From Spirochaetota bacterium (lineage in GTDB: Bacteria > Spirochaetota > UBA4802 > UBA5550): a stretch of 64,000 bases of DNA. Of the stretch, positions 32,994-51,891 are shown in pieces (the first letter of the stretch is position 1; every line of letters begins with the position of its first letter). Where the stretch lies: positions 1,029 through 65,028 of the forward strand of contig DAISJZ010000005.1 in assembly GCA_036821145.1 (NCBI GenBank), in the 5' to 3' direction. The position numbers and the translations under genes are program-made. The notes under the pieces are model-generated. The model was not told where the DNA came from and ran no database searches. It saw only the letters and a list, made by a program, of their open reading frames with translations.

Positions 32994-35117
32994 ATGAAGG
33001 TCAGGGATTTTTTATGCAGCAGCAGGATACAGTTTTTCAAGATCGATGACACTGTAAGAGAGGCATGTTCTATATTTAATGATCTCAAAATAGACGCGTC
33101 AGTTGTTGTTGATGACAACGATATACTGGTGGGTCTGTTTACAAAAAATCATGTGTTTAAAGCAATTAAAAACGGTATTGATCTTGATACCCCTATCGGG
33201 GAGCTGATGACCAGGAATGTAATGTCAGGTCACCCTGATGATAATGTTGAAGACAGGTTTTACTTCAAGCACGGATATCTCCCGGTGGTGGAGAACGGTA
33301 AAGCTGTTGGTGTTATTTCAATCCCGGATTTTGTGAAGACATATCACGATTCATATAAAGTGGCGCGGAATTTTGTGGATGCTATTGTAAACTCCTCAAG
33401 CAACCTCCTTGTTTCAGTGGGACAGGACGGCAGGATTATACTTGTAAATAAAATGGCGCAGGAGCGCCTTGATATGTCTGAGGCTGATTTTATCGGTAAA
33501 AACTACTCTGAAGTTTTTCCTGAAATAAGCCTCAATGATGTAATTAAAAGCGGTGTTATCCCCCCTGTACAGAAGGTGATGATAAAAGGGAGGCCGTATA
33601 TCAATTCAAGGTATCCTGTATGGCTTGAGGGGAAAATTATTGGAGCTGTATCTGCGTTTCAGGACGTGGAAGCGCTGGAGTTTATAATTAACGAGCTTGG
33701 AACTGAGAAGGAGCTCAACAGAGACCTGGACGCCATCATCGAATCCTCCTCGGACGGGATATTTGTATGTGACGGAGACGCGAATGTTCTCCGGATAAAT
33801 AAAGCGTATGAAAAAATATCAGAGCTCGATACAACCGGTTTTTACGGCAAAAATATGAGGGATCTTGTCGCGAACGGGACCTACTCCCAGTCTGTAACTC
33901 TCCTTGTTATCGCAAAGAGGGAAACAGTAAGTATTGTTCAGAAGACAAGCAGCGGTAAATCCCTTCTTGCTACAGGTAAGCCTGTGTTTGATGAGAAAGG
34001 AAATATTTTCAGGGTTGTGACAAGTGTAAGGGATATAACAGATCTATATAGAATACAACAGACTCTTGAAGAGACGCAGAAGATGACTGAGGAGTACAGG
34101 AAGGAGCTGGACTCTCTAAGAATAAAATCCGTTAAGAATATTGATGGAATGATTATCGGCTCAGAGAAGATGAATGCACTGGTTGATATGGCTATCAGGC
34201 TCGCGAAGGTTGATTCCACAATAATGATAACAGGTGAGTCCGGAACAGGTAAAGATCTTGTTGCAGGGATCATTCACAAGTACAGCCAGAGGGAGAGCAA
34301 GCCCTTTATTAAAGTGAACTGCGGAGCTATACCTGCCAATCTCCTTGAGTCAGAACTTTTCGGTTATGAGGATGGAGCTTTTACAGGCGCCCGCAAAGGT
34401 GGGAAACCCGGCTACTTTGAGATGGCGGATAAAGGCACGCTCTTCCTTGATGAGATTGGGGAGCTCCCTTACGAACTTCAGGCAAAAATGCTGCGGGTTC
34501 TTCAGCATAAAGAGTTCAACCGCGTGGGGGGGAAGAAATTCATGCAGGTTGACGTCAGAATTCTCACGGCAACCAACAGGGATCTCCTGGAGATGGTTAA
34601 TGAGAAAAAGTTCAGGGAGGACCTGTACTACAGGCTTAATGTCGTTCCCCTTAATATCCCCTCCCTTCGCGAAAGGAGTGAGGATATACCTTTTATTACT
34701 GCTTATTACCTTAAACTTTTTAATGACAGCTACAATATGGCAAAAAGGTTCTCTTCTGAAGTTATGGATGCCTTTGAGAAATACTCGTGGCCCGGTAATA
34801 TAAGGGAACTTCGTAACCTTGTGGAGAGGCTTGTGGTAATGTGCCCTGATAATGTTATCACTCCTGCTGATTTACCTTCTAATATCTGCACAGAGGCTAA
34901 ATGTGAGGATTCAGTTTCAGGTTCCGGCATCAGGGTGAATGAGGTTATGCCTCTGAAAGATGCTATTGAAAATGTGGAAAAACAGCTTATTGCAAAGGCT
35001 TATGAAAAGTTTGCGTCAACACGTGAGATGGCTAAGCATCTTAAAATAAGCGCTCCCACAATAGTGAGGCGTGCGGCAAAATATGGAATAACAAAAAATG
35101 GTTTGTTTCAAAAATGA
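32994..35117 (+). CDS. sigma-54-dependent transcriptional activator (CBS pair - PAS - PAS - AAA+ - Fis-type HTH)
   Basis: Walker A is GESGTGKDL. The ESELFGYEDGAFTGA block carries the GAFTGA sigma-54 contact loop. Also present are RVLQHKEFNRVGG, RILTATNRDL, FREDLYYRLNV and WPGNIRELRN, with a C-terminal HTH. The N-terminal CBS-like repeats and PAS-like regions are read by eye. Confidence 0.9.
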   Translation: MKVRDFLCSSRIQFFKIDDTVREACSIFNDLKIDASVVVDDNDILVGLFTKNHVFKAIKNGIDLDTPIGELMTRNVMSGHPDDNVEDRFYFKHGYLPVVENGKAVGVISIPDFVKTYHDSYKVARNFVDAIVNSSSNLLVSVGQDGRIILVNKMAQERLDMSEADFIGKNYSEVFPEISLNDVIKSGVIPPVQKVMIKGRPYINSRYPVWLEGKIIGAVSAFQDVEALEFIINELGTEKELNRDLDAIIESSSDGIFVCDGDANVLRINKAYEKISELDTTGFYGKNMRDLVANGTYSQSVTLLVIAKRETVSIVQKTSSGKSLLATGKPVFDEKGNIFRVVTSVRDITDLYRIQQTLEETQKMTEEYRKELDSLRIKSVKNIDGMIIGSEKMNALVDMAIRLAKVDSTIMITGESGTGKDLVAGIIHKYSQRESKPFIKVNCGAIPANLLESELFGYEDGAFTGARKGGKPGYFEMADKGTLFLDEIGELPYELQAKMLRVLQHKEFNRVGGKKFMQVDVRILTATNRDLLEMVNEKKFREDLYYRLNVVPLNIPSLRERSEDIPFITAYYLKLFNDSYNMAKRFSSEVMDAFEKYSWPGNIRELRNLVERLVVMCPDNVITPADLPSNICTEAKCEDSVSGSGIRVNEVMPLKDAIENVEKQLIAKAYEKFASTREMAKHLKISAPTIVRRAAKYGITKNGLFQK

Positions 35118-35159
35118 AACACTGTTTCATTTTTGAAATTCTGTTTCATTATTGAAACA
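35104..35159. promoter_or_regulatory. three tandem TGTTTCA-N4-TGAAACA inverted repeats (candidate enhancer/UAS for the sigma-54 activator)
   Basis: The sites are at 35104-35121 (perfect), 35123-35140 (right half TGAAAtt) and 35142-35159 (perfect), a strict 19-bp register. The first site overlaps the activator gene's stop codon. Confidence 0.6.
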
Positions 35160-35300
35160 GAATCGAATTTATTAAATTTAATGAACATTTTAAAGATTTT
35201 TTTATAATTTTTCCCTTCCATTGTTTTATAATAGAGTAATCAAAGAAAACCGCTAACTCCAAAAAACACTCAATTCTAATTAAATACATGCTTTGATAAT

Positions 35301-35328
35301 ATATCTGTTTCAAATATGAAACAGATAT
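35301..35328. promoter_or_regulatory. fourth, extended palindrome ATATCTGTTTCA-AATA-TGAAACAGATAT (candidate UAS)
   Basis: Perfect 12-bp arms containing the same TGTTTCA/TGAAACA core. It lies about 220 bp upstream of the -24/-12 element. Confidence 0.6.
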
Positions 35329-35534
35329 AAAAAAATCAGAAAAATCAGCAAGCTCCAGGTTTAGATGACAGAGTTTGATGCACCGGTTTAATTCAAAAAA
35401 AATTTTCTTAAATTAAAAAAAATCGAATAATACATCTGCTAATAGAGTTTTACCCTGCTCCTATAACCAGTAAAAGTACCATTCGGACGGTTATTACATC
35501 TCTATCCTTTTTTACAGTAATTCAGGCCTGATTC

Positions 35535-35550
35535 TGGCACACATCATGCA
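35535..35550 (+). promoter_or_regulatory. sigma-54 (-24/-12) promoter of the abfD operon
   Basis: TGGCAC-ACATC-ATGCA matches the consensus TGGCAC-N5-TTGCA with correct GG/GC spacing. It lies 54 nt upstream of the abfD ATG and downstream of a sigma-54 activator gene. Confidence 0.75.
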
Positions 35551-35603
35551 ATATATACCTGTGAACTTCAGATTAAATAAAAATTTTATGGGAGGCGTTA
35601 TTA

Positions 35604-37046
35604 ATGAAAACCGGAAAGGAATATGAAGATAGTTTAAGAAAGCTGAATCTGAAAGTTTACCTGTTCGGCAAGAAAGTTGAAAATGTTGTAGATGACCCGA
35701 TTATTCGACCATCAATGAATGCTGTTAAAATGACCTATGATATGGCTGCAATGCCGGAGTATGAAGATTTGCTGACAGCTACATCACATTTAACAGGTAA
35801 AAAGATAAACAGGTTCACACATATCCACCAGAGCACAACCGACCTTGTAAAGAAAACGAAAATGGAGAGGCTCCTCGGTGCCCAGACTGGTTGCTGTTTC
35901 CAGCGCTGCGTTGGAATGGATGCGATGAATGCTCTTTCTATTACTACATTCAACATCGACAAGAAGTACGGCACTGAGTATAACAAAAGATTCCTGAAGT
36001 ACCTTGAGTATGTTCAGGCGGAAGACCTTACATGTGACGGAGCAATGACAGACCCTAAAGGGGACAGAAGCCTGGCACCTCACCAGCAGAAAGATCCTGA
36101 TATGTTTCTACATGTTGTTGAGGAGAGAGCTGACGGTATAGTCGTAACTGGGGCAAAAGCTCACCAGACAGGAGCAGTTAACTCTCATGAGATTATTGTA
36201 ATGCCAACTATTTCAATGAGGGAAGAGGATAAAGATTATGCTCTTTCTTTTGCATTACCTGCAGACGCAGAGGGGATAACATACATTTATGGAAGGCAGT
36301 CTTGTGATACAAGAAAGCTTGAAAAAGGAAAGATTGATAGAGGAAACCAGCTTTTTGGCGGGCATGAAGCCCTTGTAGTTTTCGATAAGGTTTTTGTTCC
36401 ATGGGAAAGAATATTCATGTACAAGGAGTTTGACTTCTCAGGAGAGCTTGTTGAGAACTTTGCTTCTTATCACAGGCAGAGCTACGCGTGTAAAGCCGGA
36501 GTTGGTGATGTTCTTATCGGAGCAACACAGGTGGCAGCGGATTACAACGGAGCAAACAAGGCATCACATGTAAAAGATAAAATTATCGAGATGAATCACC
36601 TGAATGAAACTCTCTATTGCGGATCTGTTGCATGTGCAACTGAAGGGAGCAAACAGCCTTCAGGAACTTTTCTTGTAAACACTCTTCTTGCTAACGTTTG
36701 TAAACAGAATGTCACAAGGTTTCCGTACGAGATTGCAAGACTTGCCCAGGATATCGCAGGTGGTCTTATGGTAACTATGCCGTCAGAGGATGATCTTAAT
36801 TCTCCCGAAATCGGACATTATGTTAAGAAGTATTTTAAAGGTAACGCAAGTGTTCCTACAGAAAACAGGCTTAAGATTCTCAGACTTATTGAAAATATTA
36901 CTTTAGGCACTGCAGCTGTTGGTTATTTGACAGAGTCTATGCACGGTGCAGGTTCACCACAGGCGCAGAGGATTATGATCGCCCGCCAGGTTAACATGGC
37001 TGAAAAGATGAAGGTAGCCAAAAAACTATGCGGGATTGAGGAGTAA
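35604..37046 (+). CDS. abfD: 4-hydroxybutyryl-CoA dehydratase / vinylacetyl-CoA delta-isomerase
   Basis: Collinear with my recollection of Clostridium aminobutyricum AbfD: SLRKLN..VY.FG, RFTHIHQST, CFQRCVGMDA, GAMTDPKGDR, YGRQSCDTRK, YHRQSY, HVKDK.IEM.HLNETLYC, ANVCKQN.TRFPYEI and ESMHGAGSPQAQRIMIARQ. Confidence 0.93.
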   Translation: MKTGKEYEDSLRKLNLKVYLFGKKVENVVDDPIIRPSMNAVKMTYDMAAMPEYEDLLTATSHLTGKKINRFTHIHQSTTDLVKKTKMERLLGAQTGCCFQRCVGMDAMNALSITTFNIDKKYGTEYNKRFLKYLEYVQAEDLTCDGAMTDPKGDRSLAPHQQKDPDMFLHVVEERADGIVVTGAKAHQTGAVNSHEIIVMPTISMREEDKDYALSFALPADAEGITYIYGRQSCDTRKLEKGKIDRGNQLFGGHEALVVFDKVFVPWERIFMYKEFDFSGELVENFASYHRQSYACKAGVGDVLIGATQVAADYNGANKASHVKDKIIEMNHLNETLYCGSVACATEGSKQPSGTFLVNTLLANVCKQNVTRFPYEIARLAQDIAGGLMVTMPSEDDLNSPEIGHYVKKYFKGNASVPTENRLKILRLIENITLGTAAVGYLTESMHGAGSPQAQRIMIARQVNMAEKMKVAKKLCGIEE

Positions 37047-37049
37047 GCT

Positions 37050-37322
37050 CTGATTATCGGACTTAAGTATTGCGGCGGCTGCAACCCTGCTTTTGACAGG
37101 GTCGCAGCAGTCGAAAGAATAAAAAGGGGTCTTGAGGGAATAGCGGAATTTGTTCCGTTGGATTATGATTCAACTGAAATGGTATTAGCAGTAATGGGAT
37201 GCGGCGCAGCATGTGCTGATCTTGAGGGGGTTGATGAAGATCACCTTATAGTCATCACAAGTGAGAAAGAAATTGATGCTGTGATAGAAGAGATAAAGAG
37301 GAAGCATAAAGTTTTTAAATAG
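37050..37322 (+). CDS. small (about 90 aa) cysteine-motif protein (KYCGGCNP ... GCGAAC), non-ATG start; absent from the ORF track
   Basis: The frame is stop-free from 37050 to TAG at 37320-37322. It translates (L/M)IIGLKYCGGCNPAFDRVAAVERIKRGLEGIAEFVPLDYDSTEMVLAVMGCGAACADLEGVDEDHLIVITSEKEIDAVIEEIKRKHKVFK. GAGGAG at 37038-37043 sits 6-12 nt before the candidate starts CTG 37050, ATT 37053 and ATC 37056. The ORF exactly fills the abfD-abfT gap. Confidence 0.6.
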   Translation: MIIGLKYCGGCNPAFDRVAAVERIKRGLEGIAEFVPLDYDSTEMVLAVMGCGAACADLEGVDEDHLIVITSEKEIDAVIEEIKRKHKVFK

Positions 37323-37335
37323 CAGGAGGTTTTAT

Positions 37336-38637
37336 ATGCATTGGAAGGAAATTTATAAGAGCAGAAAAGTATCAGCTGATGATGCGGTGAAGCATATAAA
37401 ATCGGGTGACAGGGTTGTTTTCGGACATGCGGCAGGGGAGCCCAAGGTGCTTGTAGATGCGCTTGTCAGAAATGCTTCGCAGTATAAGAATGTTGAGATA
37501 GTTCACATGGTTGCCATGGGGAAAGGAGAATACTGCAGCGAGGAGTATTCAGAACATTTCATTCATAACGCGTTGTTTGCAGGTGGGCCGACACGGAAGG
37601 CTATTCATGAAGGGAGAGCTCTTTATACACCGTGCCACTTTAGCAGAATACCCTCTCTTTTTAAAGAGAATATTCTCCCGATTGATGTGGTTCTGATGAT
37701 GGTGTCAGAACCTGATGAGCATGGATACTGTTCTTACGGAGTGTCAGTGGATTATACTAAACCGGCAGCGGAAAGTGCTAAAATGGTTATTGCTGAAGTT
37801 ACTCCAAACATGCCCCGTACTTATGGTGATTCATTTATCCATGTATCAAACATAGATTACATAGTAGAAACAGATTCAAGTCCGGCAATATTGAATCCGC
37901 CAAAACTTGGTGAGACAGATGAAAAGATCGGTAAAAATATTGCTGAGCTAATCAACGATGGCGACTGCCTGCAGCTTGGAATCGGAGCAGTTCCTGACGC
38001 GATCCTGAATTTTTTAACAGATAAAAAGAACCTGGGTATTCACAGTGAAATGATTTCAGATGGAGTCGTCGGACTTGTTGAAAAAGGTGTTATTAATTGC
38101 TCAAAGAAAAATTTTCACACAGGCAAGATGGTCCTGACATTCCTTATGGGGTCAGAACGTCTTTATAAGTTTGCGCATAACAACCCGGCTATCGAGATGT
38201 ATCCGGTTGATTATACTAACAGGCCGTCCATCGTTGCGAAGAATAATAACATGGTTTCTGTTAACTCTGCGCTTCAGGTGGATTTCACAGGCCAGGTAGT
38301 TTCAGATACTATCGGTTACAAGCAGTATAGCGGAACAGGCGGTCAGCTTGATTTTGTACGCGGTGCGTCATGGTCAGAAGGGGGGAAATCAATTCTTGCT
38401 TTCAGCTCAACAGCGGCAGGCGGGAAACTTTCAAGGATAGTCCCCCACATCGATGAAGGGGCATCAGTTACAACTCCGAGGACTGACACTCACTTCATAG
38501 TAACTGAGTACGGCATTGCCGACCTCAGGGGAAAATCGGTAGTAGAGAGAGGCAAAGCCCTTATAAAGATCGCGCATCCCGACTTCAGGGAGGAGCTTTC
38601 AAAGCAGTTTTTTGAAATCTATAAAAAAGCGATCTGA
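37336..38637 (+). CDS. abfT: 4-hydroxybutyrate CoA-transferase (acetyl-CoA hydrolase/transferase family)
   Basis: 433 aa, strong RBS AGGAGG. Family blocks are LQLGIGAVPDA, GIHSEMISDG, NSALQVDFTGQV, GTGGQLDF and IVTEYGIADLRGKS. The location next to abfD supports the substrate call. Confidence 0.85.
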   Translation: MHWKEIYKSRKVSADDAVKHIKSGDRVVFGHAAGEPKVLVDALVRNASQYKNVEIVHMVAMGKGEYCSEEYSEHFIHNALFAGGPTRKAIHEGRALYTPCHFSRIPSLFKENILPIDVVLMMVSEPDEHGYCSYGVSVDYTKPAAESAKMVIAEVTPNMPRTYGDSFIHVSNIDYIVETDSSPAILNPPKLGETDEKIGKNIAELINDGDCLQLGIGAVPDAILNFLTDKKNLGIHSEMISDGVVGLVEKGVINCSKKNFHTGKMVLTFLMGSERLYKFAHNNPAIEMYPVDYTNRPSIVAKNNNMVSVNSALQVDFTGQVVSDTIGYKQYSGTGGQLDFVRGASWSEGGKSILAFSSTAAGGKLSRIVPHIDEGASVTTPRTDTHFIVTEYGIADLRGKSVVERGKALIKIAHPDFREELSKQFFEIYKKAI

Positions 38638-38685
38638 TTAACTTAGCGAGTTTATTATATTTAAACTAATAAAAAGGAGTCCAAT

Positions 38686-40131
38686 ATGGGTATTAGAAGA
38701 GAAAGGGAGTATGGCGGAATACAGCCTGGTATTCCATTGGGGCCATTATCATTAAGGCTTCCGTTTATTCATTACAGGTTTGAGTGGGCTGACTATCTTC
38801 AGGGTCTGCTTATGTGTGCTGTTTGTCTCTCGATAATTCCTATCCTTACAGGAAAACTCGGGATGTCTTTTGAGGTTGCCCTTGCAGTGGTTATCCTCAA
38901 CGGAACACTGTATCTTGCTCACGTAACATTAGGCGACCCTGTTGTTCCGGGTTGGATTACACCGGCTATTCCGTTGATCGTTGCATACTGTGAAACTTTC
39001 TCACCAGGTGCAGAGCGTATGCAGGCGTTAATAGCTTTTCAGATGGAGTTTGGTGTTATCTGTATTCTTCTCGGTATTACAGGTCTTGCTAAAAAGTTCA
39101 TTAATCTTATTCCTAACGCTGTTCAGTCAGCGGTTCTTATGGGCGCAGGTTTTGCGGCTATCATAATGATTTTCACTCCGGGAAAAGGTCTTAAGAGTTT
39201 TGATGCTAATCCGCTTACAATAACAATCTGTGTGGGTCTGGCATTTTACCTTCTTTTTTCTCAGAGCTTTAAATCTTTTAAAAAGAAACATAAGTGGGCA
39301 TATTATCTCGGAAATCTTGGTATGATGCCATGTCTTGCACTTGCTATTTTTGTAGGTCCTTTAACAGGGGAACTCCCATGGCCGGATTATTCAGGAATTT
39401 CATTTTTCTCAAGCCCTGATTTTACAACATTATGGAGTGATTTCACAATGCTGGGAGCTATTCCATTCCCGACAGCAGGTATGTTTTTAAGTTCAATACC
39501 TATGGTTGTGAGCGCGTACATAGTAGTTTTTGGTGACGTTATTCAGAGCCAGGCTCTTCTTGATGATGCACAAAAATTCAGACCTGACGAAAATGTAAAC
39601 TATAACCCTAACAGATCACACATCATTTTTGGTGGAAGAAACCTTATAATGAGTATTGTAGGTCCTGATATTTCAATGTGCGGTCCTCTCTGGGCAGCAA
39701 TGCAGGTTGTTGTTTGTGACCGTTTTAAAAACGGCCCGAAAGCAATGGAGTCTATCAATGGCGGCGCAGGGTCATTCAGATGGGGAACATGGACAGGTTA
39801 TTTTATTGCTCCGATAGTTGCTTCAGTTAAACCTATCCTTGGTGTAGGTCTTGCATCAACAATGCTTGTTCAGGGCTATGTTAGTGTACGTGTTGGTGTA
39901 CTTAAATCAAGAGGTTTTAATGACCTTGGTATAGCCGGCGTTGCAGGTGCTATTGTTGCAACACGCGGTGCTGCATGGGGTCTTGGCGCGGCTATCTTAC
40001 TTGTTGTCCTTCAGTATATAGGAAACCAGTGGAAGAATGCCTATGTTGCAGAAGAGCCTGTATTCCCGCTCGACTCACCTGAAGTTATAGCAAAAATTGT
40101 TGAAGAACATATGAATGAAAGTAAAGGTTAA
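38686..40131 (+). CDS. polytopic membrane transporter of unrecognised family (last gene of the abf operon)
   Basis: 481 aa, hydrophobic almost throughout (about 12 helices), RBS AAAGGAG, followed by a terminator. I could not assign a transporter family by eye. Confidence 0.7.
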   Translation: MGIRREREYGGIQPGIPLGPLSLRLPFIHYRFEWADYLQGLLMCAVCLSIIPILTGKLGMSFEVALAVVILNGTLYLAHVTLGDPVVPGWITPAIPLIVAYCETFSPGAERMQALIAFQMEFGVICILLGITGLAKKFINLIPNAVQSAVLMGAGFAAIIMIFTPGKGLKSFDANPLTITICVGLAFYLLFSQSFKSFKKKHKWAYYLGNLGMMPCLALAIFVGPLTGELPWPDYSGISFFSSPDFTTLWSDFTMLGAIPFPTAGMFLSSIPMVVSAYIVVFGDVIQSQALLDDAQKFRPDENVNYNPNRSHIIFGGRNLIMSIVGPDISMCGPLWAAMQVVVCDRFKNGPKAMESINGGAGSFRWGTWTGYFIAPIVASVKPILGVGLASTMLVQGYVSVRVGVLKSRGFNDLGIAGVAGAIVATRGAAWGLGAAILLVVLQYIGNQWKNAYVAEEPVFPLDSPEVIAKIVEEHMNESKG

Positions 40132-40150
40132 TATTCATAAAGCTTCCTGA

Positions 40151-40195
40151 ATTTGAGGGTTCTCTGCTTCATAATGCGGTAGAGGACCCTCAAAT
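40151..40195 (+). terminator. long stem-loop after the abf operon
   Basis: ATTTGAGGGTTCTCT ... AGAGGACCCTCAAAT forms 15-bp arms with one mismatch, 20 nt after the permease stop. The downstream T-tract is weak. Confidence 0.55.
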
Positions 40196-40283
40196 CTGAA
40201 TTGTTGTTTTACAAAAAGTTTATAATTATATTATTTATATTACAACAAAGTATCTGTCTGGCAGAGTTAATAAATCTGGAGGA

Positions 40284-41006
40284 ATGAATATTATGGCATA
40301 TGTTGAAGGGCATCCGGGTAAAAAAGTTGAAACCTCAATGATGAAGCATGCGTTTTTCATGATTATATCCTCCATCTCACTTGTTGCTTTTATGCTCTAT
40401 ACTTCAGATGACCCGGCATCGGATCTGATGAAAATTCTTTTTATTGTAGCTGTTGTTCTGGCTGTAAGTGTACTTGTTTCTGTAAAACTGAATCCCCTGG
40501 GATGGAAAAGAATTTTCAACAGGTCTGAATATGAAAGGATAATTGAAATTGAAAGCATGGTGATTGAAAAACTGAACGAACTGGATGACAGTTATTTTGT
40601 TATTAATGATTTTAGTTTTGAATTATTGCGTGTGGAACACCTTATTATATCTGAAAATGGTTTTTTTGTACTGGCAAAATCCCCCAAAACCGGCAATCTC
40701 CGCGTAGAGGGCAACACCCTCTACGCGGGAGATTATTCCCTTGAAAAAGCCACAGCAGGACTGTGGAGGGTGTGCCATCTTATAAATATTTTAATACGCA
40801 AGGGATTTAATAATCTTGAGATAATGCCAAAACCCGTTCTGATTCTCCCTGAATCAGGTAAACCGGCGTTGACCGAATTTGATGGTATAACCATTGCAGG
40901 GATAGATGATTTGAATAACATCATAACAAAAAAAATTAAGTTTAAAATAGAAAAAGAGACTGCCGATGGTTTTGCGTATTTTATAAAAGGACGATATATC
41001 AGATAA
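40284..41006 (+). CDS. membrane-anchored NERD (nuclease-related) domain protein
   Basis: Two N-terminal TM helices, then NERD-like blocks (YFVINDFSFE, VEHLIISENGFFVLAKS). The start could be the second ATG at 40293. Confidence 0.65.
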   Translation: MNIMAYVEGHPGKKVETSMMKHAFFMIISSISLVAFMLYTSDDPASDLMKILFIVAVVLAVSVLVSVKLNPLGWKRIFNRSEYERIIEIESMVIEKLNELDDSYFVINDFSFELLRVEHLIISENGFFVLAKSPKTGNLRVEGNTLYAGDYSLEKATAGLWRVCHLINILIRKGFNNLEIMPKPVLILPESGKPALTEFDGITIAGIDDLNNIITKKIKFKIEKETADGFAYFIKGRYIR

Positions 41007-41032
41007 TCTATCAAAGGTTAAGAGGAGTCCAT

Positions 41033-41413
41033 ATGAAAAGTGGAAAACTGAGTTTTAAAGAACTTCCGGCTAAGGTGAGATATGGAATAGTTATCACAAT
41101 TTCCGCCTGGATTCTTTTTATCATATCATCAATTTTAAAAACCGGAACAATTTCAATACTCCATATGACTATGGGGATGTTTTTCTGTTTTGCGATACTT
41201 TCACTTCGCAAATGGAGCAGAATAGCTACTTCATTATACAATATTTTTATGGCAATAATGATTGGTTTTGAATTATATAATACATTTTCTGCCGGAGAAT
41301 TTATTTTTTCAATATATACAATTGTTAAAATCATCTGTATATTCATGTTCTCTGCTGCGTCGGTTTTTCTTTTGTCCAGGGAAACAGCAAAGTTTTTTAC
41401 TGAAAATTCCTGA
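41033..41413 (+). CDS. small four-helix membrane protein, unknown function
   Basis: 126 aa with RBS AAGAGGAG 6 nt upstream and four clear hydrophobic helices. I prefer it to the overlapping antisense ORF 41011..41427. Confidence 0.6.
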   Translation: MKSGKLSFKELPAKVRYGIVITISAWILFIISSILKTGTISILHMTMGMFFCFAILSLRKWSRIATSLYNIFMAIMIGFELYNTFSAGEFIFSIYTIVKIICIFMFSAASVFLLSRETAKFFTENS

Positions 41414-41633: not shown

Positions 41634-42920
41634 ATGAAAGAAGTCGTTATTGTAAGCGGAGCAAGGACATCAATAGGAGCTTTCGGGGGGAGTTTAAAGG
41701 ACGTATCAGCAATAGAGATGGGATCACTTGTCATGAGAGAGGTATTCAAAAAGATTAATCTCAAACCTGTGGTTTCCGGCGAGCAGATCAGTGTAGCTCC
41801 GGATAAGTTTAAGCAGAAAGGGCAGCTTGATCTTGAGAAAAAGGGATATCTTTACGAGGCTGGAGCTAAAGAGATAACAGTTGATGAGACAATCATGGGC
41901 TGTGTTCTTCAGGCTGCGCAGGGTCAGAATCCGGGGCGTCAGGCGGCAATATTCGCGGGTATACCTAAAGAGGCAGCAGGTTATTCTGTTAACATAGTAT
42001 GCGGCTCCGGCCTTAAAGCAATAGCAAATGCTGCACAGTCAATTATGACAGGCCAGGCTGATGTAGTTGTTGCAGGGGGTATGGAGAGCATGAGCAACGC
42101 TCCTCTTGCTCTTAAAAAGGCAAGGTGGGGACACAGGATGGAGCTCACCGGAACAGGCGATATCCACGACCTCATGGTATATGATGGACTTTATGAAATC
42201 TTCAACGGCTACCACATGGGTATCACAGCTGAAAATATTGCAGAACTTTATGGAATAGGGAGAGAGGAGCAGGACAAACTCGGAGTTCTTTCACACCAGA
42301 GGGCTATGAATGCGATCAAAACAGGTCTCTTCAAGGAGGAGATTGTGCCGGTAGTTATTTCATCAAGGAAAGGTGATATAATTATAGATACAGACGAAAG
42401 GCCAATGGAGACAACACTTGAAAAGATGGCTGCTATGAAGCCTGCATTTAAGAAAGATGGAACAGTTACAGCGGGAAACGCTTCAGGGATAAATGACGGA
42501 GCAGCAGCAGTTCTCATGATGAGCGCTGACAAGGCAAAAGAGATGGGACTTGAGCCCATAGTAAAAATAAGATCATTTGCGGTTGGCGGAGTTGACCCTG
42601 CATACATGGGACTCGGACCTGTACCTGCAATGAGAAAGGCCATGAAACTCGCTGGTATGACTATCAGGGATTTTGACATGGTTGAAATCAACGAGGCATT
42701 TGCGTCCCAGGCAATAGGGTGCTTCAGGGAACTCGGCCTTGACAACGAATTTCCGAACCAGCTTGGAAGCGGAATATCGCTTGGTCACCCGATTGGATGT
42801 ACTGGCGCGAGGATGGCAGTAACAACAATGTACCAGATGAAGAGAAAGAATTTCTCAACCGGTATCGTCTCCATGTGTATAGGCGGCGGTATGGGTATGG
42901 CTATGATATTCGAAAGATAG
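41634..42920 (+). CDS. acetyl-CoA C-acetyltransferase (thiolase II) with a ~36-aa N-terminal-domain insertion, copy 1
   Basis: Motifs present: MKEVVIVSGARTSIGAFGGSLKD, active-site VCGSGLKA, NASGINDGAAA, GHPIGCTGARM and CIGGGMGMA. At 428 aa it is longer than the usual ~392-400. Confidence 0.92.
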   Translation: MKEVVIVSGARTSIGAFGGSLKDVSAIEMGSLVMREVFKKINLKPVVSGEQISVAPDKFKQKGQLDLEKKGYLYEAGAKEITVDETIMGCVLQAAQGQNPGRQAAIFAGIPKEAAGYSVNIVCGSGLKAIANAAQSIMTGQADVVVAGGMESMSNAPLALKKARWGHRMELTGTGDIHDLMVYDGLYEIFNGYHMGITAENIAELYGIGREEQDKLGVLSHQRAMNAIKTGLFKEEIVPVVISSRKGDIIIDTDERPMETTLEKMAAMKPAFKKDGTVTAGNASGINDGAAAVLMMSADKAKEMGLEPIVKIRSFAVGGVDPAYMGLGPVPAMRKAMKLAGMTIRDFDMVEINEAFASQAIGCFRELGLDNEFPNQLGSGISLGHPIGCTGARMAVTTMYQMKRKNFSTGIVSMCIGGGMGMAMIFER

Positions 42921-42933
42921 AAACTGATATAGG

Positions 42934-42958
42934 GGCACCGTGTAAGCGGTGCCTTTTT
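42934..42958 (+). terminator. rho-independent terminator between thiolase and crotonase genes
   Basis: GGCACCG-TGTAAG-CGGTGCC followed by TTTTT. Confidence 0.75.
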
Positions 42959-42985
42959 ATTTATTAGTACCGGGGGTTTATAAAG

Positions 42986-43768
42986 ATGGCGGATTTTCAG
43001 AATTTAACATATACAAAAAATGGCGTCGTAGGGATTGTCACTGTTTCACGTCCCAAGGCGATGAATGCCCTTAACACGGATCTTCTTGTTGAGCTTGGGA
43101 AAGTTGCAGATATGGCTGCTGAAGATAAAGATCTCTCTGTCCTGATTATCACCGGAGAGGGAAAAGCGTTTGTGGCTGGTGCTGATATTGCTGAGATGAA
43201 GAATTTTAACAGTGAGCAGGGGAGAGAATGGGGCGAACTGGGCGCAGGTGTTTTCAATAAGATCGAAAAGCTGAAGATACCTTCAATTGCGGCTGTTAAC
43301 GGATTTGCCCTTGGCGGAGGTTGTGAGCTTGCAATGTGCTGTGATATCCGTATTGCTTCTGAAAACGCGAAGTTCGGACAGCCTGAGGTTGGTCTTGGAA
43401 TTACACCGGGGTATTCAGGATGCGTGAGGCTCCCCAGACTTGTGGGACCGGCGAAGGCGAAGGAGCTTATTTATACAGGGGATATTATTAACGCTGCTGA
43501 AGCTGAAAAAATCGGCCTTGTCAACAGGGTTGTGGCTCCTGAAAAATTAATGGACAGCGCTCTTGAACTGGCGCAGAAGATAGCTTCACGTGCACAGCTT
43601 GCTGTCCGTTATTCAAAAATGGCTATAAACCGGGGCCTTGAGACAGATATTGAAACAGCTATAGTTTTTGAAAATCAGGTTTTTGCACTCTGTTTTGCCA
43701 CTGAGGATCAGAAAGAGGGTATGACAGCATTTATCGAAAAAAGAAATGCTGATTTTAAATGCAGGTAG
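42986..43768 (+). CDS. short-chain enoyl-CoA hydratase (crotonase), copy 1
   Basis: Motifs present: GEGKAFVAGADIAEM, AAVNGFALGGGCELAMCCDIRIAS, GQPEVGLGITPG and EDQKEGMTAFIEKR. Confidence 0.92.
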   Translation: MADFQNLTYTKNGVVGIVTVSRPKAMNALNTDLLVELGKVADMAAEDKDLSVLIITGEGKAFVAGADIAEMKNFNSEQGREWGELGAGVFNKIEKLKIPSIAAVNGFALGGGCELAMCCDIRIASENAKFGQPEVGLGITPGYSGCVRLPRLVGPAKAKELIYTGDIINAAEAEKIGLVNRVVAPEKLMDSALELAQKIASRAQLAVRYSKMAINRGLETDIETAIVFENQVFALCFATEDQKEGMTAFIEKRNADFKCR

Positions 43769-43800
43769 AACCTGCCTGTTTTTGTCTTCTAATACTCTGA

Positions 43801-43832
43801 TATTCAGCCGCTTTTGCGGCTGAATATCTTTT
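43801..43832 (+). terminator. rho-independent terminator after crotonase copy 1
   Basis: ATTCAGCCGC-TTTT-GCGGCTGAAT followed by ATCTTTT. Confidence 0.75.
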
Positions 43833-44093
43833 AAATGATTTTCCTCGGTAAATTTTTTCCTATAATTACTAAAGCTACAATAATTTAATCAATAGAATTA
43901 CATTAATAATTACATACTGAGTATTGTTATTAAAGCTGAAAAAGGCCTTATACTTTATAGCGGACTTTTTTTAGATTGGCAGAAATTACAGGCTTTTACG
44001 ATTGAATTAGAACATTAAATTGTCATTTCGTAAGGCGTTAATTTAGAAAAAGTCTAATAGAAGCTATCTCGGGTTAAGGCGGTGTAAATTATT

Positions 44094-45908
44094 ATGCAAT
44101 ATGTAGTGCAGAATGAAAACGATTATTTCAGCCAGTCGGGACTCGCTACATTGGAACTCGATGAAAATTTAACAATAGTCAGATTTAATGATGAACTGAC
44201 CAGAATTACAGGTATTCCGGAACCTGTCCTTTCAGGTATGAAGTGGAATGATCTTGTTGCGTATTATAATCCCTGTACAGTCAGCGGAGAAAATTTATAC
44301 ATGAAATGGGGTATGAAAACTCCTACCGGTAAATTCTGGTGCTGGCAGAAATATAAAAACCCCCGGAGAATTTTTTCAGCTACAGTAAAGTATGACTGGA
44401 TACAAAGGGTCTATTTTGCCACTTTGTATGATATCAGTGATCAGATATCACCGGAGAAACTTGTAACTGATGGCGGGATAATTACCGGTGTTATTACAGA
44501 TTCTGTAAAAGGGGCTATGGCGTATCATGACAGTGATGGTATAATCAGATTTGCATCCCGCGAGATATGCAGTATGGCAGGGCTCAGCAGCAGGGATATT
44601 ATCGGCAGGCATATCAGAGATTTTTTTGATCACGGGCTTGTTGAGAAGTGGCTCTCTCTTATGAATAAAAAAAACTGTGAGCTTCCGGGTAATCTTGAAT
44701 TCAATACATCCGGAAGTCATAGTCATGTACAGGTTTTTCATTCAATAGCAACTCCAAGACTATTCATGAAAAAAGACGGTACTGTTGCGGGGTGTATGTT
44801 TATTTTTGCGGATATAACAGAGTTAAAGCACCATGAACGGAAACTGAAGATTTCTGATGAGAAATATTCCAAGGCGTTTCACGCCAGTCCCGCACCAAGT
44901 TCAATTACAACACTTAAAGACGGAAGATTTTTAGAAGTTAATGAAAGTTATGCGCGACTGGTGGGGTATTCAAAAGAGGAACTTATCGGTGAAACAACAA
45001 CCAGCATTAATTTTATAGTAAACAAAGTGGAAAGAGAAAAGTTTGTAAATGAACTGATGATAAACGGGAAATTACGTGATTATGAGACACAGGTTTATTC
45101 AAGAGTAAAAGGGATCCGGACGTTCTCCCTCTCCGCGGAGATAATTGAACTGCAGAGTGAAAAATGTATCATTCTTGTGGGATATGACGTTACTGATCAG
45201 ATCCGCCTTGAAAAGGAGGTCCTGACTATTACAGGCAGGGAAAGATACAAAATCGGACAATATCTCCATGATGATCTGGGTCAGCATATTGTGGGTATTG
45301 AAGCTATGTGTGCAATACTGGAAAACAGGATGAAAGCTAATAACAGCCCTGATGTCGATATGCTGACTGATATATCTGAATACCTGAGAGAAGCACATGA
45401 AAAAGCAAGGAATATGGCTGGAGGATTATGCCCTGTAAGGCTTGAAGAGAACGGCCTCAGTTCTGCTATTGAAGAGCTCTCCATTAAGATTTCAAAAATG
45501 TATAATATAAAGTGTGAGTATCGTAATTACAACTCGAACATTAAAATTTACAACAGTCAGATTGCAATTAATATGTATTATATTGTAAGGGAAGCAGTTA
45601 ATAATGCAATAAAACATGGTAAAGCGGGTACAATAGAGATAACATACTCATCAAGCGCAGACACTATTTTTATTCTTATTAGAGATGATGGTGATGGATT
45701 TGATATAGTGAAAAATGAATCATCAGGGATGGGGCTCAGCCTGATAAAATACAGAGCACGGGCAATAGGAGGTTCTGTAGATATTGAAAGTGAGCCCGGA
45801 TCGGGAACATCCGTTTTATTGAAGTTCCCGAGAATTAACAATAAAAAAAATGAATGGGACTGGAAGCAGAAAACCTATGAAGAAATCGCAAGTGTTTATC
45901 GTAGATGA
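44094..45908 (+). CDS. soluble multi-PAS sensor histidine kinase (HisKA_3 / NarX-DegS type), paralogue 1
   Basis: No hydrophobic TM segment. PAS-like block: DEKYSKAFHASPAPSSITTLKDGRFLEVNESYARLVGYSKEELIG. H-box: RYKIGQYLHDDLGQHIVG. ATPase N/G boxes: REAVNNAIKHGKA, DDGDGF, GMGLSLIKYRARAIGGS. Confidence 0.9.
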   Translation: MQYVVQNENDYFSQSGLATLELDENLTIVRFNDELTRITGIPEPVLSGMKWNDLVAYYNPCTVSGENLYMKWGMKTPTGKFWCWQKYKNPRRIFSATVKYDWIQRVYFATLYDISDQISPEKLVTDGGIITGVITDSVKGAMAYHDSDGIIRFASREICSMAGLSSRDIIGRHIRDFFDHGLVEKWLSLMNKKNCELPGNLEFNTSGSHSHVQVFHSIATPRLFMKKDGTVAGCMFIFADITELKHHERKLKISDEKYSKAFHASPAPSSITTLKDGRFLEVNESYARLVGYSKEELIGETTTSINFIVNKVEREKFVNELMINGKLRDYETQVYSRVKGIRTFSLSAEIIELQSEKCIILVGYDVTDQIRLEKEVLTITGRERYKIGQYLHDDLGQHIVGIEAMCAILENRMKANNSPDVDMLTDISEYLREAHEKARNMAGGLCPVRLEENGLSSAIEELSIKISKMYNIKCEYRNYNSNIKIYNSQIAINMYYIVREAVNNAIKHGKAGTIEITYSSSADTIFILIRDDGDGFDIVKNESSGMGLSLIKYRARAIGGSVDIESEPGSGTSVLLKFPRINNKKNEWDWKQKTYEEIASVYRR

Positions 45909-46563
45909 TCACCCCATTTTCCGCAAGGGGCTAAGACAGCTTATCAATGAAGAGAGTGACATGATAGTTTGTGATGAAGCTGAAGACGTATTCAGCGCCA
46001 CTACCAAGCTCAGGGGAATTAAACCTGACATAGCGATTGTTGACATTACACTGAATGATACCAGCGGCCTTGAACTTATAAAGTTCATAAATGACAACAG
46101 GATGAAAATACCGGTGCTTGTTCTCTCCATGCATGATGAAAAAATATTCGCGGAACGTGCTATAAAGTCCGGTGCAAGAGGCTATATTATGAAGCAGGAG
46201 ATGGCAAAACAGGTTGCGGGGGCGGTACGGCATGTGCTTTCCGGAAAGATATACCTCAGTGATACAATGAACGAACGGATGCTGAATTCCTTTTCTGCGA
46301 AAGAAGAGAAACCGGAAGAAATAAGCAACGATAATCCTGCGTCAATTCTTTCAGGGAGAGAGCTTGAGATATACATGCTTCTCGGGAAAGGGTACCAGAG
46401 AAAAGATATTGCCGGGATGCTGAACCTGAATATAAATACAATTGGAACCTACAGAGAAAAAATAAAAGAGAAGATGGCATTTGAATCTTCAAGCGCTCTT
46501 GTTGCCCACGCAATAGCATGGGTCAGGAAGCAGGAGAGCGGCAGCCCGGACGCACAGCTTTAA
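45877..46563 (+). CDS. LuxR/NarL-family response regulator, paralogue 1
   Basis: The REC domain has VFIVDDHPIFRKGL and DIAIVDITLNDTSGLEL. The GerE HTH is LSGRELEIYMLLGKGYQRKDIAGMLNLNINTIGTYREKIKEKM. The start at MKKSQ (45877) is chosen by homology with the two paralogues and overlaps the kinase gene by 32 nt. Confidence 0.9.
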   Translation: MKKSQVFIVDDHPIFRKGLRQLINEESDMIVCDEAEDVFSATTKLRGIKPDIAIVDITLNDTSGLELIKFINDNRMKIPVLVLSMHDEKIFAERAIKSGARGYIMKQEMAKQVAGAVRHVLSGKIYLSDTMNERMLNSFSAKEEKPEEISNDNPASILSGRELEIYMLLGKGYQRKDIAGMLNLNINTIGTYREKIKEKMAFESSSALVAHAIAWVRKQESGSPDAQL

Positions 46564-46603
46564 AAAAATACTCCTCTATTCATCACAGTAAAATCAATTT
46601 ATT

Positions 46604-46660
46604 GACCACAACGTGTAACTAAGTAGGGTTATTGCAGATATCTCCTGAAGATGCTATTAA
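46604..46660 (+). promoter_or_regulatory. candidate promoter with an upstream GACCACA box (acyl-CoA dehydrogenase 1a)
   Basis: GACCACA (46604-46610), 21 nt, TTGCAG (46632-46637), 17 nt, TATTAA (46655-46660). The ATG is at 46696. Confidence 0.5.
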
Positions 46661-46695
46661 TTTGTTATATTATTTATTTCCCAGGAGGAGAGATC

Positions 46696-47859
46696 ATGTT
46701 TGATTTAACAGAAGAACAATTGATGGTCAGAAATATGTGCCGTGAATTCGCTGAGAAGGAGTTAAGAGAACAGGCGGTAGAAATAGACAGAACCCACAGG
46801 TTCCCGCTTGAGACAACAAGAAAGCTCGGTGAGTTAGGTATAATGGGCGTTGTTTATGATGATAAATATGGCGGAGCCGGTATGGACTATGTATCATACG
46901 CTATAGCAGTTGAAGAGATATCAAGGGTCTGCGCATCATCAGGTGTAATAGTTTCAGCTCACAACTCACTCTGCGTTTCACCGATAAATTATTTCGGTAC
47001 AGAGGAGCAGAAGCAGAAGTATCTTCCTAAACTCTGCAAAGGTGAACATATCGGGGCTTTCGGCCTCACAGAACCAAACGCAGGTTCAGATTCAGGCGGA
47101 ACAAAAACAACGGCAGTTCCTGACGGCAAAGGTTTTACTCTCAACGGAAGCAAAAACTTTATTACTAACGGCGAATATGCCGATGTACATGTGACTCTTG
47201 CGGTTACTGATAAAAATGCATCAAAGAATAAAAATACATCTTTCTTTATTATTGAGAAAGGAGATCCGGGTTTCAGCGTAGGGAAAGTTGAGGATAAACT
47301 CGGAATATGCGCTTCATCCACCACTGAAATGATTTATGAAGACTGTAAGATTCCTGAAGGCAGGATGCTCGGCAAACCGGGTGAAGGTTTTAAAATCGCG
47401 ATGCACACACTTGACGGCGGACGTGTAGGTATTGCAGCACAGGCTCTCGGGATCGCCCAGGCTGCACTGGAAGAAGCTGCAAAATATGCCAATATGAGAG
47501 AGCAGTTCGGAGCTCCAATAGGAAAACTACAGGCAATACAGTGGATGATTGCTGATATGGCTACAGAGATTGAAGCATCAAGGCTTCTTGTATATCAGGC
47601 AGCGGCAATTCTTGATAAGAACGGTGCTAACAGAAGGCCTGCAAGTAAATACGCTGCAATGGCAAAACTCTACGCAGCTGAATGCGCACACAGATGTGCT
47701 CATAAATGTATACAGATACATGGCGGTTACGGCTATGTTAAGGATTATATTGCAGAAAGACTTTATAGAGATGCAAGAATTACTGAAATCTATGAAGGGA
47801 CATCAGAAGTACAGAGACTTGTTATTGCTGCTAATGTTCTTTCAGAGTTTGAAGGATAA
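46696..47859 (+). CDS. acyl-CoA dehydrogenase, butyryl-CoA dehydrogenase-like (lineage 1, copy a)
   Basis: MFDLTEEQ... start with RBS AGGAGGAG; the track ORF starts 45 nt upstream at 46651. Motifs: GAFGLTEPNAGSD, KNFITNG, GGRVGIAAQALGIAQ, YEGTSEVQRLVIA. Confidence 0.92.
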   Translation: MFDLTEEQLMVRNMCREFAEKELREQAVEIDRTHRFPLETTRKLGELGIMGVVYDDKYGGAGMDYVSYAIAVEEISRVCASSGVIVSAHNSLCVSPINYFGTEEQKQKYLPKLCKGEHIGAFGLTEPNAGSDSGGTKTTAVPDGKGFTLNGSKNFITNGEYADVHVTLAVTDKNASKNKNTSFFIIEKGDPGFSVGKVEDKLGICASSTTEMIYEDCKIPEGRMLGKPGEGFKIAMHTLDGGRVGIAAQALGIAQAALEEAAKYANMREQFGAPIGKLQAIQWMIADMATEIEASRLLVYQAAAILDKNGANRRPASKYAAMAKLYAAECAHRCAHKCIQIHGGYGYVKDYIAERLYRDARITEIYEGTSEVQRLVIAANVLSEFEG

Positions 47860-47899
47860 TTCATCATCAGCTTTAACTCAATCATAGGGGGATTGAATT

Positions 47900-49186
47900 A
47901 TGAAAGAAGTGGTTATAGTAAGCGGTTCAAGGACATCAGTCGGAGCTTTCGGTGGCAGTCTGAAAGATGTATCAGCAATAGAGATGGGTTCTCTTGTAAT
48001 GAGAGAAGTATTCAGAAAAATTAATCTTAAACCTGTTGTTTCAGGAGAGCAGATTAGTATCTCACCTGATAAGCTTAAACACGCGGGCCAGCTTGAGCTG
48101 GAGAAAAAGGGATATAAATATGAAGCCGGGGCAAAAGAGATAACAGTAGATGAGACAGTAATGGGCTGTGTTCTCCAGGCGGCACAGGGGCAGAATCCCG
48201 GACGCCAGGCGGCAATCCACGCGGGTATTCCGAAAGAGGCGGCAGGCTGTTCAATAAACATAGTATGCGGTTCAGGACTGAAGGCAATAGCAATGGCAGC
48301 ACAATCAATTATGACAGGTCAGGCTGATGTAGTTGTTGCAGGCGGTATGGAGAGCATGAGTAACGCTCCTCTTGCTCTTAAAAAGGCAAGGTGGGGACAC
48401 AGGATGGAGCTCACCGGAACAGGCGATATCCACGACCTCATGGTTTATGACGGCCTTTATGAAATATTCAACGGATACCATATGGGTATAACAGCGGAGA
48501 ATATAGCAGAACTGTACGGTATAAGCAGGGAGGAGCAGGATAAGCTCGGTCTGATGTCACACCAGAGGGCTATGAATGCGATCAAAACAGGTCTCTTCAA
48601 GGATGAGATTGTGCCGGTAGTTATTTCATCAAGGAAAGGTGATATAATTGTAGATACAGATGAAAGGCCTATGGAGACAACACTTGAAAAGATGGCATCC
48701 ATGAAGCCTGCATTTAAAAAGGACGGAACAGTTACAGCGGGAAACGCTTCAGGAATAAATGACGGAGCAGCAGCGGTTCTCATGATGAGCGCTGACAAGG
48801 CAAAAGAGATGGGACTTGAGCCTATAGTAAAAATAAAATCTTTTGCCACAGGGGGAGTTGATCCCGCATACATGGGACTCGGCCCTGTACCTGCTGTGAG
48901 GAAAGCTTTAAAGCTCGCAGGTATGACAATAAAGGATCTGGATATGGTAGAGATTAACGAGGCATTCGCGTCCCAGGCAATAGGGTGTTTCAGGGAACTC
49001 GGTCTTGACAACGAATTTCCCAACCAGCTTGGAAGCGGGATTTCTCTTGGCCACCCGATTGGATGTACTGGCGCGAGGATGGCAGTAACAACAATGTACC
49101 AGATGAAGAGAAAGAATTTCTCAACCGGTATCGTCTCCATGTGTATAGGCGGCGGTATGGGTATGGCTATGATATTCGAAAGGTAG
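47900..49186 (+). CDS. acetyl-CoA C-acetyltransferase (thiolase II) with the same ~36-aa insertion, copy 2
   Basis: 428 aa, nearly identical to 41634..42920, including long runs of identical nucleotides. Confidence 0.92.
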   Translation: MKEVVIVSGSRTSVGAFGGSLKDVSAIEMGSLVMREVFRKINLKPVVSGEQISISPDKLKHAGQLELEKKGYKYEAGAKEITVDETVMGCVLQAAQGQNPGRQAAIHAGIPKEAAGCSINIVCGSGLKAIAMAAQSIMTGQADVVVAGGMESMSNAPLALKKARWGHRMELTGTGDIHDLMVYDGLYEIFNGYHMGITAENIAELYGISREEQDKLGLMSHQRAMNAIKTGLFKDEIVPVVISSRKGDIIVDTDERPMETTLEKMASMKPAFKKDGTVTAGNASGINDGAAAVLMMSADKAKEMGLEPIVKIKSFATGGVDPAYMGLGPVPAVRKALKLAGMTIKDLDMVEINEAFASQAIGCFRELGLDNEFPNQLGSGISLGHPIGCTGARMAVTTMYQMKRKNFSTGIVSMCIGGGMGMAMIFER

Positions 49187-49248
49187 AAACTGATGACAGT
49201 ATAAATATTTTTATCAGGATTCAAATTTCATTTTTGTAATAATTTAAA

Positions 49249-51846: not shown

Positions 51847-51891
51847 AGGCTTTAATATAAATAAGACAAATAAAAAGGGGAAATAGCAGAA

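Follow-up and report, generated by a model that had tools for sequence, protein, structure and literature searches.

The closest described relative of the locus analysed here is the XanR regulon of clostridia. XanR, a CBS-PAS activator with a GAFTGA loop, was predicted by comparative genomics upstream of abfD-nifU-hyp-ach-golB in Clostridium beijerinckii (Cbei_2099/2100) and upstream of abfD-nifU-ach-... in C. kluyveri (CKL_3021/3020), with sigma-54 promoters of the form TTGGCAC/T-N-TTGCT at -62 and -69 and with GTTGCA-N4-TGCAAC-like sites, including a pair 18 bp apart (Nie et al. 2019, BMC Genomics 20:565, PMC6615313). It is thus a computational prediction and not a characterised regulator (PMC6615313), and we found no experimental study of a XanR-type abfD circuit in the literature searched, the C. 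beijerinckii sigL paper being silent on the XanR circuit. Two other systems have been studied at the bench: GabR of Bacillus thuringiensis, a one-component sigma-54 activator of PAS-AAA+-HTH architecture (PMC4279683), and NorR of Escherichia coli, whose three enhancer sites at the norVW promoter are jointly required for sigma-54-dependent activation (PMC2831303). Our subject is a locus of the first kind in an uncultured Spirochaetota bacterium, in which the gene of a CBS-PAS activator precedes an operon for 4-hydroxybutyrate use headed by abfD (4-hydroxybutyryl-CoA dehydratase). It lies in a stretch of 64,000 nucleotides (contig DAISJZ010000005.1 of assembly GCA_036821145.1, positions 1,029 to 65,028 of the forward strand), hereafter the window, to whose first letter all coordinates refer.

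The layout of this locus resembles the XanR regulon in several respects. A CBS-PAS activator with GAFTGA lies directly 5' of an abfD-led operon that also encodes a small Cys protein and a 4-hydroxybutyrate CoA-transferase, a sigma-54 promoter is found 57-69 nt before the ATG, and there are several inverted repeats GTTxCA-N4-TGxAAC, two of those of XanR being 18 bp apart. With Clostridium lundense, the clostridial XanR-type representative that we compared as a proxy for Cbei_2099 and CKL_3021, it has in common sites placed over the activator stop codon and a distal extended palindrome. We consider it highly probable, on the strength of these sequence comparisons, that activator, sites, -24/-12 promoter and operon make up a dedicated single-operon sigma-54 circuit for 4-hydroxybutyrate use. 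The proposal of such a circuit, made earlier from the letters of the window by what we call the sequence-only reading, is strongly supported because rpoN is present at full length, because phylogenetic footprinting singles out the sites and the promoter, because the synteny is conserved, and because the same layout recurs in two other phyla. Its accompanying claim that the circuit was not known to be characterised, and hence novel, does not stand in that form, the same circuit type having been predicted by Nie et al. in 2019 (PMC6615313).

The activator gene (32994..35117, + strand) encodes a sigma-54 enhancer-binding protein of 707 amino acids (aa), whose domains were assigned from Pfam and NCBIfam scans, the translation and motif positions. 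At the N-terminus Pfam matches a CBS repeat at residues 3-59, and a second, more degenerate repeat is readable at about residues 66-117, giving a pair at about residues 3-117 (nt 33000-33344). The second repeat ends in GVISIPD, which fits what we take to be the ribose-binding motif of such domains, G-h-h-S/T-x-x-D/N, and on this ground the two repeats likely form a Bateman pair. Two PAS modules follow, PAS1 at residues ~125-235 and PAS2 at residues 244-353 (nt 33723-34052), and then the AAA+ sigma-54 interaction domain (Sigma54_activat, PF00158; residues 387-553, nt 34152-34652, E 1.4e-70), with AAA_lid_14 also matched, and a C-terminal HTH_50 (residues 652-699, nt 34947-35090, E 3.7e-14). Walker A (GESGTGK, residue 414), Walker B (LFLDE, residue 483) and the GAFTGA loop (residues 461-466, nt 34374-34391) are all in place, so that the hallmarks of an enhancer-binding protein, namely AAA+ with both Walker motifs, GAFTGA, a C-terminal HTH and an rpoN in the genome, are present together with the CBS and PAS sensor domains that had been read from the sequence. 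The genome encodes 5 enhancer-binding proteins, and the CBS-PAS N-terminus occurs in this one only. Among named models PrdR (NCBIfam NF041552, the sigma-54 regulator of proline reductase) scores highest, at 497.5 bits over residues 240-697; the PAS-AAA+-HTH core is common to both, whereas the N-terminus and the target operon differ, and membership in PrdR was rejected against the model cut-off of 795. The family to which the activator belongs is very large, with at least 7954 homologues at E <= 1e-50 among the 8000 candidates scored.

Three palindromes lie in a 19-bp register at 35104-35159, as described in the sequence-only reading. Site 1, TGTTTCAAAAATGAAACA (35104-35121), is perfect and overlaps the end of the activator gene, the stop codon TGA (35115-35117) forming the first three bases of its right half; three relatives (loci L003, L004 and L005) have it at the same position. 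Site 2, TGTTTCATTTTTGAAATT (35123-35140), carries 2 mismatches, its right half reading TGAAATT, and site 3, TGTTTCATTATTGAAACA (35142-35159), is again perfect. With starts spaced 19 bp apart, the three sites abut. Together with its flanks ATTC/GAAT, site 3 forms an 11-bp stem, which could also end the activator transcript. A distal site 4 has the perfect core TGTTTCAAATATGAAACA (35306-35323) within a palindrome that had been given as 28 bp (35301-35328) and in fact measures 30 bp (35300-35329). All four TGTTTCA-N4-TGAAACA sites are where they had been reported, three of them perfect and the copy at 35123 with 2 mismatches. Four matches compare with 0.39 expected, a number reached in 0 of 100 shuffles. 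The genome search that had been proposed showed the three perfect copies to be the only ones in 3.75 Mb, and none of the six sites with 1 mismatch lies near a -24/-12 match; by this search we found no regulon member elsewhere in the genome.

Between the sites and abfD the DNA is AT-rich: the GC fraction is 0.28 for the intergenic region and 0.28-0.32 for the spacer, compared with 0.41 for the window. At its end, as had been noted, stands the sigma-54 promoter TGGCACacatcATGCA (TGGCAC-N5-ATGCA, 35535..35550, + strand), with the -24 GG at 35536-35537 and the -12 GC at 35548-35549. The GG-N10-GC spacing is correct and the element lies 56-68 nt before the abfD ATG, from which a transcription start near 35560 is predicted. 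A genome-wide scan with a strict -24/-12 pattern returned 19 matches including TGGCACacatcATGCA; three of the others adjoin other activator genes, which validates the pattern for this organism. The sigma factor itself, whose absence would have spoken against the whole proposal, is encoded by one full-length rpoN on contig C60 (471 aa, with AID, CBD and DBD domains). From 35160 to 35603 the + strand gave no call of a sigma-70-like site. An Rfam search of the leader and intergenic region gave no element, only sub-threshold noise on the palindromes, and a riboswitch or known RNA upstream of abfD was accordingly rejected.

Conservation among related spirochaetes provides the phylogenetic footprint. 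A search of 40 related genomes with the activator gave 12 matches at E <= 1e-100, with activator identities of 92-52%, and the order activator-abfD-small ORF-abfT-permease-orf240 (ORF, open reading frame; orf240 encodes a 240-aa protein treated below) is retained as far as the contigs extend. The intergenic DNA resists alignment except for a few conserved blocks, which coincide with the tandem sites, the distal palindrome, the -24/-12 element and the ribosome-binding site. In at least seven related genomes sites, register, promoter and ribosome-binding site are kept despite this divergence, the tandem sites in an 18-19 bp register and the -24/-12 element, in seven relatives, at 70-85 nt from the ATG between diverged flanks. 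Between distal site and promoter the distance ranges from ~180 to 300 bp, as looping would lead one to expect. The core heptamer is retained as a sequence across genomes and at each of the four sites, and the 4-nt spacer varies in sequence but never in length, as would be expected if a protein dimer binds there. In the middle site the right half departs from TGAAACA in all 6 relatives with a scored middle site, a regularity that suggests a centre site deliberately kept weak and reliant on cooperativity.

In more distant orthologues (~52% identical; genomes G031 and G037 were examined) the promoter is separated from abfD by inserted genes for a porin-like protein and a metallo-beta-lactamase-fold hydrolase, and the sites drift towards TGTTGCA/TGCAACA. 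The secreted metallo-beta-lactamase-fold hydrolase recurs in the sigma-54 abf operon at L027 (G031), at L028 (G037) and in Desulfobotulus (L035:11610-12386). Given that this hydrolase repeatedly joins the abf operon, the lineages that carry it may have gamma-butyrolactone or esters of 4-hydroxybutyrate as their natural substrate. An apparent co-variation of the HTH with the half-site ('IS-A(P/A)' with TGTTTC, '(D/N)-AST' with TGTTGC) was not used as evidence, as it rests on one or two independent events and has exceptions, among them Desulfotomaculum defluvii, whose sites are mixed.

The same layout is found outside the phylum. In Desulfobotulus alkaliphilus (Desulfobacterota) the gene of an activator with 50% identity is succeeded by a pair of abutting sites, an extended palindrome in distal position and TGGCAC-N5-GTGCA, ahead of the operon abfD-AF_0334-abfT-MBL hydrolase (MBL, metallo-beta-lactamase). 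In C. lundense a 483-aa homologue has luxEC on one side and abfD-NifU-AF_0334-abfT-permease on the other; it shows 47% identity over 456 aa (the PAS2-AAA+-HTH region), is without CBS and PAS1, and finds its best match in the present genome in our activator, with 426 bits compared with 260 for the next. There, too, the sites overlap the activator stop codon and are followed by a distal 46-bp palindrome and by TTGGCATGTTACTTGCTT. Paralogous CBS-PAS-PAS activators, ~48% identical, stand in Syntrophomonas wolfei (L033) and D. defluvii (L034) by genes for thiolase, 3-hydroxyacyl-CoA dehydrogenase, enoyl-CoA hydratase and acyl-CoA dehydrogenase or by electron transfer flavoprotein (ETF) genes, with TGTTGCA-N4-TGCAACA-type sites plus a -24/-12 element. 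As a side observation, the family may control butyrate oxidation in syntrophs.

In the activator tree the abfD-linked proteins of spirochaetes and Desulfobotulus form one clade (support 98/98) with Desulfobotulus nested inside, the Syntrophomonas and Desulfotomaculum activators form its sister clade, and the C. lundense activator falls outside the abfD-linked clade on a long branch. AbfD of the window is 83-84% identical to two Desulfobacterota enzymes (L032 and L035), as close as to those of distant spirochaetes. This identity and the nesting of the Desulfobotulus activator among spirochaetes indicate that the abf cassette, including its regulator, has probably moved between phyla.

The palindromes could also be read as structures rather than as protein sites, that is, as RNA or DNA hairpins that mainly serve as terminators, 3'-end stabilisers or insulation of the activator transcript. 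They do fold well, with energies (-26.7 kcal/mol for sites 1-3, -17.3 kcal/mol for site 4) that are much lower than those of shuffled sequences, and a terminator scan flags 35105-35139 and 35138-35163. The arms of the distal site are complementary but lineage-specific in sequence, a compensatory-type pattern with extensions of 6, 4, 4, 19, 14 and 4 bp, of which the 19 bp per side belong to L006 and the 14 bp to C. lundense (distal sites of L006, L030 and L035); the last tandem site often has complementary arms too, the inner tandem sites mostly have 0 bp of extension, and a T-run follows 3' of the distal site in Desulfobotulus and C. lundense. In the window, however, an A-run and not a T-run follows the distal site, and what is conserved in the core heptamer, throughout sites and genomes, is the sequence and not mere pairing, with a spacer fixed at 4 and the sites in their 18-19 bp register. 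The same motif was moreover derived independently as the XanR activator site (PMC6615313), and it tracks the activator family even where the target operon is different, as in S. wolfei. We therefore regard it as unlikely that the palindromes are hairpins in place of activator sites. The arms, which are the strongest argument for the hairpin reading, look like selection for a hairpin, be it an activator-transcript terminator or a cruciform, on top of a protein site; a dual role as binding site and hairpin is compatible with the proposed circuit, and the hairpin is possibly a second function rather than a replacement of the first.

That the palindromes bind some other regulator, e.g. a repressor encoded elsewhere, while the activator uses other sequences, is very improbable in our judgement: nothing specific speaks for it, no other regulator gene is conserved at the locus, no other conserved intergenic block could serve as the activator site, and the motif co-occurs with the activator family across three phyla and different target operons. 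The promoter element might likewise be fortuitous, with abfD depending on a sigma-70 promoter or on transcripts that run on from the activator gene, and its -12 region, ATGCA, does deviate from the consensus TTGCA/T. Set against the rarity of strict -24/-12 matches (only 19 in 3.75 Mb, several beside other activator genes), the retention of the element at 70-85 nt from the ATG in seven relatives with diverged flanks, and the lack of any sigma-70-like call upstream of abfD on the + strand, we give a chance origin hardly any credence.

For the dedicated sigma-54 circuit we propose the following course of events, in which binding, the nucleation of the hexamer and looping are inferred, as is the inducer. 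Activator dimers would bind through the C-terminal HTH_50 to the three abutting sites, ~430 bp upstream of the start, and a further dimer to the distal site, ~250 bp upstream of it. The three-dimer array would nucleate the active AAA+ hexamer, which the AT-rich, A-tract-rich spacer would permit to loop to the closed sigma-54 holoenzyme at TGGCAC-N5-ATGCA, where ATP hydrolysis and the GAFTGA loop would open the promoter. Transcription would then cover abfD, the small Cys protein gene, abfT and the permease gene; 4-hydroxybutyrate would be imported, activated to its CoA ester and dehydrated to crotonyl-CoA, which would enter the pathway of the thiolase, crotonase and acyl-CoA dehydrogenase encoded further along the window. 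Until a pathway metabolite is present, the N-terminal sensor modules would keep the ATPase off. The most likely inducer is 4-hydroxybutyrate or the CoA ester derived from it. As the C. lundense homologue controls the same kind of operon without CBS or PAS1, the PAS module adjoining AAA+ appears to be a better candidate for the pathway-specific sensor than the CBS pair. The earlier suggestion that the CBS pair senses an adenosyl or CoA-type ligand is weakened, as far as a pathway-specific sensor is concerned, by that CBS-less protein of 483 aa; that the pair reports adenylate or CoA status is speculation.

Several points weigh against this interpretation. The tandem array lies ~400 bp from the promoter, which is unusually far, most clostridial activator sites being found at 100-250 bp (PMC6615313). 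The palindromes can also form stable RNA hairpins, so that some of the constraint on them could stem from a function in terminating the activator transcript. As to the inducer, it was guessed from the genes that the operon contains. Finally, the C. lundense homologue is without the CBS module and branches off the abfD-linked clade on a long branch, and strict orthology to XanR is for these reasons not established. A broader and more doubtful idea, to which we would give only a small chance, is that the multi-phylum CBS-PAS-PAS family is a general set of short-chain acyl-CoA sensors in anaerobes, in which the CBS pair binds the CoA thioester, an adenosine-containing molecule, and the extended distal palindrome is both enhancer and terminator of the activator gene. 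It starts from the neighbourhoods of family members, which are 4-hydroxybutyrate genes in the window and in Desulfobotulus and beta-oxidation or ETF genes in Syntrophomonas and Desulfotomaculum; if true, it would add CoA thioesters, as a new class, to the ligands of CBS modules in transcription control.

The structural genes of the operon are abfD, a small Cys-motif ORF, abfT and a permease gene, all on the + strand, in agreement with the sequence-only reading except that the small ORF has ~90 codons and not 54. The ribosome-binding site GGGAGG of abfD is at 35590-35595. The gene itself (35604..37046) is single copy in the genome and encodes 4-hydroxybutyryl-CoA dehydratase / vinylacetyl-CoA isomerase of 480 aa (E 2.5e-210 to PDB 1u8v). 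In alignment with 1u8v, residues C99, C103, H292, C299, E257, Y296, T190 and E455 (1u8v numbering) are all identical, and AbfD has one residue fewer between Y296 and C299. We take C99, C103, H292 and C299 to be the ligands of the [4Fe-4S] cluster and E257, Y296, E455 and T190 to be catalytic. AbfT (37336..38637), a 4-hydroxybutyrate CoA-transferase of 433 aa with the Pfam domains AcetylCoA_hydro and AcetylCoA_hyd_C, matches four solved 4-hydroxybutyrate CoA-transferases, e.g. 3eh7 at E 6.6e-162 and 3gk7 at E 2.2e-156, the similarity to solved structures spanning residues 1-429.

Between these two genes lies the small Cys-motif ORF (37050..37322; KYCGGCNP...GCGAAC, ~90 aa). It has no ATG, GTG or TTG start in this genome, its relatives having TTG or ATG there, and would begin at a non-canonical CTG at 37050 or ATT at 37053, directly behind a ribosome-binding-like GAGGAG at the end of abfD. 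At every locus examined, be it of spirochaetes, Desulfobacterota or Clostridium, the ORF stands between abfD and abfT. The label PF27236 (AF_0334) is attached to its homologues in Desulfatibacillum, Desulfobotulus and C. lundense and comes from precomputed annotations of homologous neighbours only; in our own Pfam and NCBIfam scans neither this protein nor the 481-aa membrane protein matched a family. Here abfD and the small ORF share one frame across a single TAA, and a read-through fusion was tried as an explanation and rejected: in L023 the frame relation is different, and because it is not kept in relatives the small ORF is taken as a separate gene. The product, of the pattern KYCGGCNP...GCxxAC, could assist the Fe-S dehydratase in its maturation or in electron transfer.

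The last gene of the operon (38686..40131) encodes a polytopic membrane protein of 481 aa, 72-76% identical to Desulfobacterota and 61-64% to clostridial proteins and linked to abfD and abfT in three phyla. Homologues are labelled BenE or xanthine/uracil permease-like by some sources, and we regard it as a candidate 4-hydroxybutyrate importer of an uncharacterised transporter family. A hairpin 3' of the permease gene (40149..40196, + strand, -30.5 kcal/mol, z -5.2) probably marks the operon end. The terminator claimed at this place is thus borne out as a strong hairpin but not as one with a clean U-tract, and the consensus terminator scan missed it because the U-tract is interrupted.

Downstream of the operon, at 40284-41413 of the window, are genes for a 240-aa membrane protein with a weak NERD match (orf240) and then a 126-aa protein. 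The former follows the permease gene in the 7 spirochaete relatives whose contigs extend there, and in Desulfatibacillum aliphaticivorans the permease gene is followed by a 237-aa homologue (34% identical to the 240-aa protein) and then by a 131-aa gene; the 240-aa gene, at least, is part of the conserved abf neighbourhood. Encoded at 41634-53241 are two thiolases of 428 aa each, a crotonase, an acyl-CoA dehydrogenase, a further CoA-transferase and two pairs of PAS kinase and LuxR regulator. The window can be described as a butyrate-type acyl-CoA island, parts of which are under two different regulatory systems. Elsewhere in the genome there are five iron-type alcohol dehydrogenase and three class-III aminotransferase genes, which were not assignable to 4-hydroxybutyrate supply.

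The circuit is unusually clean, in that a single regulator is paired with a single operon, the site motif is unique and the genome has only five activators; this makes it a good test case for a predicted, uncharacterised regulator family. In syntrophs and sulfate reducers as well as in clostridia and spirochaetes, members of the family stand by genes for butyrate and 4-hydroxybutyrate, and the ligand would explain how short-chain acid pathways are switched. A working 4-hydroxybutyrate-responsive pair of activator and promoter would be useful as a biosensor for strains producing 4-hydroxybutyrate, gamma-butyrolactone or 1,4-butanediol. Nothing known is overturned by the circuit.

Compared with the known systems, the structural genes are canonical: measured against the C. 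aminobutyricum enzymes (1u8v and 3gk7), AbfD scores 702 bits and AbfT 524 bits, whereas the context differs, the two being joined here to an importer and placed under predicted sigma-54 control. The resemblance to NorR is mechanistic only, NorR being a model for three dimer sites that nucleate one hexamer (PMC2831303); its sensor is a GAF/iron NO module, its site motif is GT-N7-AC and its pathway is unrelated. GabR, likened here by its description, also switches on a C4 acid pathway, the GABA shunt, upon GABA or succinic semialdehyde (PMC4279683), but it lacks CBS repeats, its targets are gabT and the gab cluster instead of abfD/abfT, and its binding sites are different. From XanR the present system is set apart by half-sites that read GTTTCA/TGAAAC and not GTTGCA, a change of one base per half-site within the same geometry, with intermediate or GTTGCA-type sites in more distant spirochaete orthologues and in Desulfobotulus. 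It further differs in having three abutting sites instead of two, and these further from the promoter (-462 to -500 from the ATG), in having no NifU gene and no luxEC or acyl-ACP second target, and in its host phylum, Spirochaetota, and the two PAS modules of its activator. What is new here is the phylum, the one-base half-site change, the triple-site array, and membership of a very large uncharacterised family of activators that stand by short-chain acyl-CoA genes.

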